Made by a program: the position numbers and the translations under genes. From the sequence record SRR20825010_561: a stretch of 60,252 nucleotides of DNA. One strand, written 5' to 3'. Every line of letters begins with the position of its first letter. Within the stretch, counting starts at the first letter, position 1. The notes under the pieces were generated by a model, which was not told the origin of the DNA, made no database searches, and was given only the letters and a program-made list of their open reading frames with translations. This document shows positions 59,185 to 60,252 of this stretch, one piece after another.

Positions 59185-60249
59185 TTGTTAAAGTTAGAAG
59201 CCATATCGACCAAGGGTGAGCAATTTATTGGTTTAGCAATTCCATATGATCAATCACTTATCGATAAAGCAAAAAAACTGAACGGTCTTTGGGATCCAAA
59301 ACTTAGGCTTTGGCTCTTTAAATACTCCTCGGCTACTGAAGCTAAAATCAAACTAGCGTTCGATATTAAAGATGAAATAGTCTTTAATCTAACTCCGGGT
59401 AAAAAAAATAGAGAAGCCCCAAAAGATTACCTCGATCAACTTGAGCGCAAGAGATATAGCCCAAATACAATCAGCACCTATATTTCTCTTTTTGAACAAT
59501 TTTTAAATCACTTTCCCCAAGTTAGCCCAGAAACATTGAGTGATGAGCATGTTGCTAAATTCCAAACCTACTTAGTGAAAGTAAAAAAGGTTTCAACCAG
59601 CACTCAAAACCAATATATCAATGCAATCAAGTTCTATTTCGAGAAAGTATTGGGGCGAGAAAAGGGTTTTTATCATATCGATAGGCCAATCCAAGAATTT
59701 AAATTACCAAAAGTACTTACAGAGAAAGAAGTAATTGCTTTGCTGAAAACAGTAACTAACCTTAAACATAAAGCCATGCTTTTAATGGTCTATAGTTCCG
59801 GTCTGAGAGCTGGAGAATTGATTAATCTAAAAATCAATGATATTGATAGCGAAAAAATGCGTGTATATGTGAGAGGTGGAAAAGGCAAAAAAGACAGGGT
59901 CAGTATTTTATCTCAGAAAGCGCTGGAAGTCTTGAGAGAGTATTTCAAGAAATATAGACCTACGGAGTTTTTATTTGAAGGGCAAGGAGGGGGGATTTAT
60001 TCAACTACTAGTCTAAGAAACGTATTTTCAAAAGCTCTTAAGAAATGTGGTATTAATAAGAAAGTGACTCTCCATTCTTTAAGACATAGCTTTGCGACAC
60101 ATCTTTTAGAGGCTGGAGTAGACATAAGGTACATTCAAGTCTTGCTAGGTCATAACTCGAGTAGAACAACAGAAATTTACACCCATATCACCCACAAAGG
60201 ATGGGAGAAAATACAGTCACCTTTAGACAATCTAAATATCAAAGTGTAG
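59185..60249 (+). CDS. Tyrosine recombinase, integron-integrase-like, with extra N-terminal domain
   Basis: Intact R-K-HxxR-H-Y catalytic set (SGLR, [29 protein letters not shown]); SAM-like domain ([24 protein letters not shown]); TTG start. Confidence 0.9.
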   Translation: [354 protein letters not shown]

Positions 60250-60252
60250 ATT

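Follow-up and report, generated by a model that had tools for sequence, protein, structure and literature searches.

The last open reading frame (ORF) in the 60,252-nucleotide stretch analyzed here (sequence record SRR20825010_561; hereafter, the window) encodes a tyrosine recombinase that is read as a site-specific integrase serving a rAID-type cassette platform that is chromosomal and integron-like, a reading assigned a probability of about 80%. The ORF (positions 59185-60249, plus strand) is intact, starts with TTG, encodes 354 residues and ends with a TAG stop codon at 60247-60249. As stated in the first-pass annotation, which was made from the sequence alone, the window itself ends only 3 nt ('att') later, at position 60252. 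That same annotation had predicted a sedentary recombinase followed by a downstream array. In relatives, this prediction held, with a single-copy recombinase, co-oriented ORFs and palindromes all being found; the array of this genome is still an inference.

What follows the recombinase gene was considered in 80 loci encoding relatives of the window protein. In these relatives, imperfect palindromes ending in AACGTT sit between the downstream genes. An initial hairpin finder, relying on a rule that combined AAC/GTT with a stem, proved too strict (13 sites downstream of the recombinase gene, one upstream and one in shuffled DNA) and was used only as the source of a seed. A covariance model, termed R1, was built from this seed of eight sites, each 131-137 nt long. 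When R1 was used to search the window and the 80 loci, 86 matches were obtained at E<=1, none of which lies in the 60-kb window. At E<=0.01, 71 plus-strand matches were seen in the 80 loci, with 70 being downstream of the recombinase gene and one upstream. At least one site was found in 27 of the 36 loci offering at least 2 kb of downstream DNA. The sites have a median length of 131 nt (51 of 71 fall within 125-135 nt) and a median spacing of 872 nt. As a control, 204 kb surrounding 12 canonical IntI genes of the same phylum were searched with R1, yielding two weak matches (E 0.03-0.08).

In the consensus fold, a 7-bp outer stem pairing ..AAC with GTT.. is joined to an inner stem of about 17 bp that includes conserved single mismatches, with the 5' spacer between the two stems being 3 nt long and the 3' spacer about 6 nt long. 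A site accordingly reads R'' (..AAC), 3-nt spacer, L'' stem, variable loop, L' stem, spacer of about 6 nt and R' (GTT..). Compensatory changes were detected in 20 of the 24 predicted pairs of the seed alignment. Across the 86 matches, 89.0% of the cells were paired, as compared to 59.3% in shuffles and 29-39% when the partners were slid by 1-3 columns, while cells in which both sides had changed numbered 569, as compared to 188.5 in shuffles; because the alignment of the matches was fitted to R1, these counts lean towards structure.

Folding with DNA energy parameters favored the bottom strand, namely that complementary to the genes, in 60 of 78 sites, and the top strand in 16, with the two being equal in the remaining two. 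The median difference between the strands was 2.2 kcal/mol (Wilcoxon p 3.6e-8), with control segments giving 40 of 78. The better folding of the bottom strand arises because A-C mismatches in the top strand become G-T pairs. Individual sites folded only weakly better than did shuffled sequences (z-scores of -1.0 to -2.5 for four top strands), such that it is covariation, and not energy, that argues for a folded substrate. As in integrons, recombination would probably use a folded single strand of the site, most likely the bottom one.

An alternative is that cassettes move by double-strand recombination between long palindromic sites, as in Xer-dependent dif modules. Palindromic sites could bind dimers on duplex DNA, the insertion by which IntI reads extrahelical bases is missing from the window protein, which lies at the cut-off of the XerA-type model NF040815, and the single-strand folding scores are modest. 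Yet the stem sequences vary while pairing is kept, as reflected in the cells changed on both sides, a pattern expected of a folded substrate and not of a duplex read by its sequence. The conserved mismatches and the strand bias in folding energy likewise weigh against duplex sites. Movement by double-strand recombination is thus considered unlikely.

Support for the integron-like platform comes as well from a relation between cassette starts and R'' that the R1 model does not encode. For 36 pairs of consecutive sites, the six bases preceding the R'' AAC were compared with those that follow GTT at the previous junction; the two were complementary in 89-97% of cases at each position, as compared to 36-56% when the comparison was with the 3' junction of the site itself. 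The start of a cassette thus pairs with that cassette's own 3' site, pointing to circular cassettes having been inserted at the AAC-GTT core (AAC|GTT). When the region between the recombinase stop codon and the first site was examined, an exact complement corresponding to GTT and the six bases that follow was found in 28 of 31 instances, whereas a shuffled word was found in none of the 31. In 22 of the 28, the distance from the stop codon to this attI-like junction is 29-112 nt. A short palindrome followed by AAC|GTT is seen there, an arrangement that is read as a putative attI. In L001, the locus of the closest ortholog, the junction GTT is found 100 nt past the stop codon, such that the attI of the present genome is expected just outside the window. 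It is thus proposed that cassettes would be excised as circles and inserted at attI through strand exchange at AAC|GTT and, judging from the relatives, that attI and any cassettes of this genome would lie past the window end.

Other properties of the downstream DNA were also considered. In 27 of the 80 loci, under 500 nt of contig remain past the recombinase gene, whereas in only one locus is the upstream flank this short. The earlier suggestion that a repeat-rich array could cause assembly breaks is thus supported by how often relatives break at this position. Within 4 kb downstream of the recombinase gene, 162 ORFs are found on the plus strand and 34 on the minus strand; the corresponding upstream numbers are 164 and 84. 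The mean GC content of the arrays is 35.5%, as compared to 40.1% for the recombinase gene, with the array value being the lower of the two in 27 of 33 loci. Two other explanations were rejected. An rRNA operon or a known RNA was sought behind the contig breaks, but Rfam revealed none in the window or in 10 loci, other than pieces of a group II intron in L020 and a single match to a small cis-regulatory RNA (DUF805b) upstream in L008. Similarly, a multicopy recombinase associated with insertion sequences is not in line with the single ortholog present in each of four Roseivirga genomes, where it is found beside two other Xer-like genes, nor with a transposase being encoded downstream in only one of 23 scanned loci.

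Cargo was assessed by Pfam searches at 23 of the 80 loci, picked for their long downstream flanks, with 123 ORFs past the recombinase gene being covered. This revealed a varied accessory cargo, including HigB, ParE and Gp49 toxin-antitoxin genes, one WapI immunity gene, one SdpI gene, Fic, a TIR protein and an MmeI-type restriction enzyme, together with a diversity-generating retroelement, a mercury (mer) operon, glyoxalase, YCII and SnoaL proteins, and an integron cassette protein (Hfx_Cass5). Many of the 123 ORFs have no Pfam match, and many belong to toxin-antitoxin, restriction or metabolic families. Some of the scanned loci pass directly into core genes after the recombinase gene. Large cargo is located inside arrays at L059 (7290-9656), L014 (8799-11831) and L006 (7305-10898), the types being a retroelement (bAvd, reverse transcriptase and Lcl_C targets), a mer operon (ArsR-type regulator, MerT, HMA protein and a mercuric reductase-like protein) and a 1198-residue MmeI-type restriction-modification enzyme.

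The possibility that the recombinase is the integrase of a prophage, an integrative conjugative element or a transposon should be weighed against this inventory. A tyrosine recombinase bordering variable DNA would be in line with such an origin, as would the variable position of the platform on the chromosome among Roseivirga species and the DDE transposase encoded downstream in L007. That transposase is, however, the only member of a phage, conjugation or transposase family among the 123 ORFs scanned in 23 of the 80 loci. Moreover, there is one copy per genome, synteny with rlmF upstream of the recombinase gene is kept in three species, and one large element would not be expected to leave a permutation signature that is seen cassette by cassette. 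Such an origin is thus deemed very improbable.

The window protein itself was next considered. The gene and the regions encoding its predicted parts, all on the plus strand, are as follows:

59185-60249, plus strand: tyrosine recombinase gene, read as the integrase of an integron-like (rAID-type) platform (ORF, Pfam, NCBIfam)
59185-59364, plus strand: N-terminal domain, residues 1-60, beta-beta-alpha-beta-beta-alpha (AF2 model; conserved W36 and W43)
59431-59661, plus strand: SAM-like core-binding domain, residues 83-159 (PF13495, 70 bits)
59710-60192, plus strand: catalytic domain, residues 176-336, without the IntI-specific insertion (PF00589, 142.6 bits), carrying R208, K233, H297, R300, H323 and Y332
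60178-60180, plus strand: codon of the predicted nucleophile Tyr332, invariant in 50 homologs and part of an IYTH motif

The ORF, the Pfam matches and an alignment of 50 homologs confirm the full catalytic set, the SAM domain and the motifs listed in the first-pass annotation. R208, K233, R300, H323 and Y332 are invariant in these homologs and H297 is kept in at least 90%, while the IYTH motif around Tyr332 aligns to the same motif in Protein Data Bank (PDB) entries 2a3v, 5hxy and 4a8e. The motifs were located at residues 174-179 (LPKVLT), 232-238 (GKGKKDR) and 297-323 ([27 protein letters not shown]). Only 23 residues separate KDR (236-238) from FLF (262-264). Alignment to Vibrio IntI4 (2a3v) is in two pieces, with residues 86-283 of the window protein corresponding to 13-212 of the chain and residues 275-349 to 245-319, such that about 32 IntI residues have no counterpart in the window protein. 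The match to the integron integrase model TIGR02249 (209.3 bits, below the cut-off of 265) is also split in two. As such, the reported absence of the IntI-specific insertion was upheld. By contrast, archaeal XerA (5hxy and 4a8e) aligns in one piece (130-134 bits), leaving residues 1-79 of the window protein unmatched. An AlphaFold model calculated from 50 sequences (mean predicted local distance difference test (pLDDT) score of 86.1) gave 2a3v as the best fold match, followed by XerA; the closest solved relative, by sequence and by fold, is thus the integron integrase 2a3v.

These same comparisons bear on whether the protein could be a housekeeping Xer-type resolvase acting at dif. The window protein scores just over the cut-off of NF040815, a model covering XerA and 'integron integrase' (221.5 vs. 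220 bits), and partially matches the XerD and XerC models. The latter scores (186.1 and 178 bits) are, however, far under the respective cut-offs of 329.6 and 335.15. NF040815 does not discriminate, given that XerD of the closest genome scores 220.7 on this model. That genome contains its own XerD (348.9 bits) and an XerC-like gene (310 bits), whose products are 32% and 28% identical to the window protein, and only 82 of the 201 Cytophagales genomes sampled encode the recombinase. In the comparison with IntI and XerC/D that the first-pass annotation had called for, a maximum likelihood tree, the recombinase family formed one clade (support 96) that grouped with Bacteroidota IntI in the (XerC,XerD)|(IntI,family) split (support 99) and not with XerC/D. 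This was a quick tree of 42 rows (LG+G4, with SH-aLRT support only) from which archaeal XerA and proteobacterial IntI were left out, and, as the program warned, long branches meet at the IntI/family split. Together, these findings make a role in chromosome dimer resolution scarcely credible.

In the integron-like platform favored here, the absence of the IntI insertion draws attention to the N-terminal extra domain. Residues 1-60 were modeled with pLDDT values of about 84-94 within the full-length protein and 84 overall when folded alone, and all 16 N-termini that were aligned carry both W36 and W43. Among these 16, sub-threshold Pfam matches to DUF5710 were obtained for eight (best E 6e-5), while matches to HARP (PF07443) were obtained for seven (best E 0.019, below the gathering score). 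Precomputed PF07443 labels appear on four of 120 homologs among the matches listed. VIA-align returned XPB N-terminal domains (Z 5.7 and 5.5) and the T4 UvsW N-terminus (Z 5.2), with eIF1 tied (Z 6.0), values in a range that the tool calls common. In Foldseek, the SMARCAL1 HARP domain (4o66) ranked sixth, although its E of 0.47 is not significant; no match to the PDB was obtained with Foldseek at E<=0.001, nor was any match at 0.9 or above obtained in an Atlas search. HARP domains, including the UvsW N-terminus, are described as compact fork-recognition domains comprising a five-stranded sheet and two helices (PMC4666394). Residues 1-60 are thus tentatively assigned as a HARP-like or substrate recognition-like domain that would bind DNA by its structure, and may recognize the folded site in place of the IntI insertion.

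The platform was also compared with known systems. The rAID-1 clusters of Bacteroidales, found in 226 of 423 genomes, have been described as "reminiscent of integrons" and as often split across scaffolds; they are defined by a recombinase more than 44% identical to BF9343_RS08045, at least two co-directional downstream genes and a GC content of 41% or less in the downstream genes, and present conserved repetitive intergenic motifs and orphan immunity gene cargo (Ross et al., 2019, bioRxiv 10.1101/471110). A follow-up study describes the system as broadly distributed within Bacteroidales (PMC12247911). In the present work, 201 genomes were sampled from the Bacteroidales and 201 from the Cytophagales; homologs at E<=1e-60 were found in 82 genomes of each order, with those of the Bacteroidales being 36-55% identical to the window protein. 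Of 20 Bacteroidales loci, 13 present R1 matches that follow the homolog and share its orientation (36 matches in all, one being a weak echo on the opposite strand). Like rAID-1, the relatives of the window gene present repeated intergenic sites, split assemblies, low-GC arrays and, in most loci with enough downstream DNA, co-directional genes. The window gene differs from rAID-1 in that its host, a marine member of the Cytophagales (Roseivirga), does not belong to the order for which rAID-1 was defined, and in that the cargo of its relatives is broader than immunity genes. In agreement with the earlier similarities, the window gene is filed as a putative member of the rAID-1 kind. The first-pass annotation had proposed a candidate for an undescribed system, a proposal that gives way to this match to the rAID-1 clusters of Bacteroidales (bioRxiv 10.1101/471110). 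That paper and its follow-up offer, in the parts available, no attC-type site grammar, crossover point or account of the N-terminal domain. A literature search revealed no paper joining rAID with attC, although the supplementary motifs and tables of the rAID work, lying outside that search, may bear on the grammar; on integron-like systems in Bacteroidota, the search returned only the rAID papers and general integron surveys. As such, within the literature searched, the attC-type grammar of the sites and, tentatively, the HARP-like N-terminal domain appear unreported.

As in canonical integrons, the sites of the relatives are imperfect palindromes of the form R''-L''...L'-R' with a GTT core at the crossover, the best protein match is 2a3v, an attI-like site adjoins the integrase gene, the start of a cassette is partnered with its own R'', and the cargo is of the types found in sedentary integrons. 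In contrast to canonical integrons, the window protein lacks the IntI insertion, scores below the TIGR02249 cut-off and carries an extra N-terminal domain, while in the relatives, the integrase gene is co-oriented with the array and not divergent from it, the R box spans about 10 bp and the sites, at about 131 nt, are of a different sequence class. The window system is thus not a canonical integron. Archaeal XerA, which resolves chromosome dimers at dif, presents the same two-domain core without the IntI insertion, yet the aligned chains (5hxy and 4a8e) lack the extra N-terminal domain and the context of the window family is instead a cassette array. Finally, the Xer-dependent dif modules of Acinetobacter plasmids rely on 28-bp XerC/D duplex sites in inverted pairs. 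Here, too, small gene modules lie between recombinase sites and would be moved without a transposase; the relatives of the window gene differ in having covarying hairpins of about 131 nt in one orientation and a dedicated recombinase.

Several points weigh against assigning the window gene to such a platform. The DNA after the recombinase gene lies outside the window, and the platform here could be empty. Nine of the 36 loci offering 2 kb or more of DNA past the recombinase gene yielded no R1 site, with three of the nine encoding cyanobacterial homologs. The seed sites were chosen by the analysts' own AAC/GTT-plus-stem rule, and the alignment of the 86 matches was fitted to the resulting model. 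To these can be added the modest folding scores of single sites, the sub-threshold nature of the matches on which the likeness to HARP is based, and the filing of the gene with rAID-1 by its features and site model and not by identity to BF9343_RS08045. Lastly, in L005, which lies on a complete chromosome and encodes a protein 68% identical to that of the window, the recombinase gene is followed by a single 136-residue ORF and then by core genes (an amidohydrolase, a MiaB-like gene, a sigma-54 activator and LptE), with a single weak site at 9473-9549. It could thus be that the window gene belongs to this same family, yet to a platform that is empty or nearly so, with the recombinase gene and attI being followed by no cassette or one and then by core genes, similar to In0 integrons. 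Such an arrangement is approached in the nearly empty L005, in L001, where a single cassette precedes the contig end, and in L002, where there are only three cassettes. On the other hand, the break 3 nt past the stop codon, if this is a contig end, is better explained by repeated or variable DNA, given how often relatives break in the same region. An empty or nearly empty platform is therefore considered improbable, and a platform followed by an array is retained as the preferred reading.

Upstream of the recombinase gene, the window contains core genes. The neighboring features, on the plus strand, are:

57935-58969, plus strand: rlmF-type rRNA methyltransferase, a core-gene neighbor given for context only (PF05971, 401 bits), also a neighbor in L001 and L002
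58970-59184, plus strand: intergenic leader that separates rlmF from the recombinase gene and contains two short palindromes (sequence inspection)
60250-60252, plus strand: final 3 nt of the window, with an attI-like site expected about 100 nt beyond, outside the window

The rlmF-type methyltransferase is accompanied by a TonB_C protein, a tetratricopeptide repeat (TPR) protein and the beta and alpha subunits of electron transfer flavoprotein. No Pfam match to a phage, transposon or conjugation family was obtained in these five upstream ORFs (54.8-59.0 kb), such that the earlier description of rlmF as the neighbor, with no mobile-element genes upstream, was found to be correct. Orthologs of the window protein are 86% identical in Roseivirga echinicomitans and 79% identical in a Roseivirga metagenome-assembled genome, with the same TPR - TonB-like - rlmF synteny.

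In L002, a 144-residue ORF (5329-5763) that is absent from both the window and L001 lies between rlmF and the recombinase gene and, by eye, may be an IS200/REP-associated tyrosine transposase-like sequence. Following the three cassettes of that locus, at 9740-10083, a degraded and heavily deleted second copy of the leader and of the recombinase 3' end is found (9740-9970), after which come a hairpin and a second attI-like copy, immediately ahead of a core gene encoding 604 residues. The remnant is closer to the window allele than to the L002 recombinase gene itself, which suggests that one platform was replaced by another at the same locus.

An islet at 26.1-27.4 kb of the window had been described as cassette-like and linked to the recombinase. 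At 26151-26710 (minus strand), it contains a gene for a ParE-family toxin (PF05016, 37.8 bits) with an overlapping 85-residue partner ORF on the opposite strand, followed by a 117-residue ORF without a family match. No hairpin site was detected in the islet, even with filters off (best score 10.4 bits). The islet is thus an ordinary ParE toxin-antitoxin pair, and the proposed link was not retained.

Additional observations were made on the distribution of the sites. Away from the recombinase gene, further hairpin sites of this class are present in the Roseivirga genomes G001-G003 (L173-L182), including a group of three on contig 50 of G001 and two copies at contig ends (C20:596-731 and C30:1-133). 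These may be fragments of arrays split by assembly, or solo or clustered sites without an integrase. In L020, pieces of group II intron domains D1-D4 identified by Rfam (9242-9509 and 12022-12318, minus strand) lie on the strand opposite to the hairpin sites and abut the R'' side of the R1 sites at 9613-9749 and 12416-12550, where the AAC core reads CAC. This arrangement recalls group IIC introns, which target attC sites. The R'' words expected beyond the L020 introns were not found. Cyanobacterial homologs from Xenococcus, Leptothoe and Adonisia (L062, L068 and L077) are 43-51% identical to the window protein, and no R1 site was detected within 6 kb downstream of their genes; these homologs may use another site class, or none.

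Integrons, the textbook gene-capture system, were also encountered in their classical form. Full-length integrases passing TIGR02249 (400-497 bits) were identified in 113 of 401 sampled Bacteroidota genomes. In several of the loci examined (L161-L172), long arrays of small ORFs sharing one orientation run divergently from the IntI gene, and in L171 (8900-17001), up to 13 copies of repeats form classical attC sites of about 105 nt with the same cassette permutation signature. R1 does not match these classical arrays. Integrons are reported in surveys to be rare in Bacteroidetes (IntegronFinder 2.0, PMC9024848); the numbers obtained here, together with the classical arrays, suggest that classical sedentary integrons are far more common in this phylum than the surveys consulted indicate.

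More broadly, it can be proposed, at slightly less than even odds, that Bacteroidota carry, beside the classical integrons, a second, phylum-wide class in which an integrase whose IntI insertion was lost or was never present, helped by an N-terminal HARP-like domain that binds DNA by its structure, reads the bottom strand of folded attC-type hairpins of about 131 nt and acts at AAC|GTT, with rAID-1 being the gut-adapted face of this class and the window gene a marine member. Because the family is present in about 40% of sampled Cytophagales and Bacteroidales genomes, it appears to be a major route of accessory-gene gain in Bacteroidota. For annotation, a 'tyrosine recombinase/integron integrase' at the end of a Bacteroidota contig can serve as a marker of a cassette array lost by assembly. 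The IntI insertion is considered essential for integron function (PMC8138268), and the family thus offers a natural experiment in which an integrase would handle attC-like substrates without it. Finally, accessory-gene acquisition in Bacteroidota by this route appears to extend beyond the interbacterial immunity genes known from gut species.

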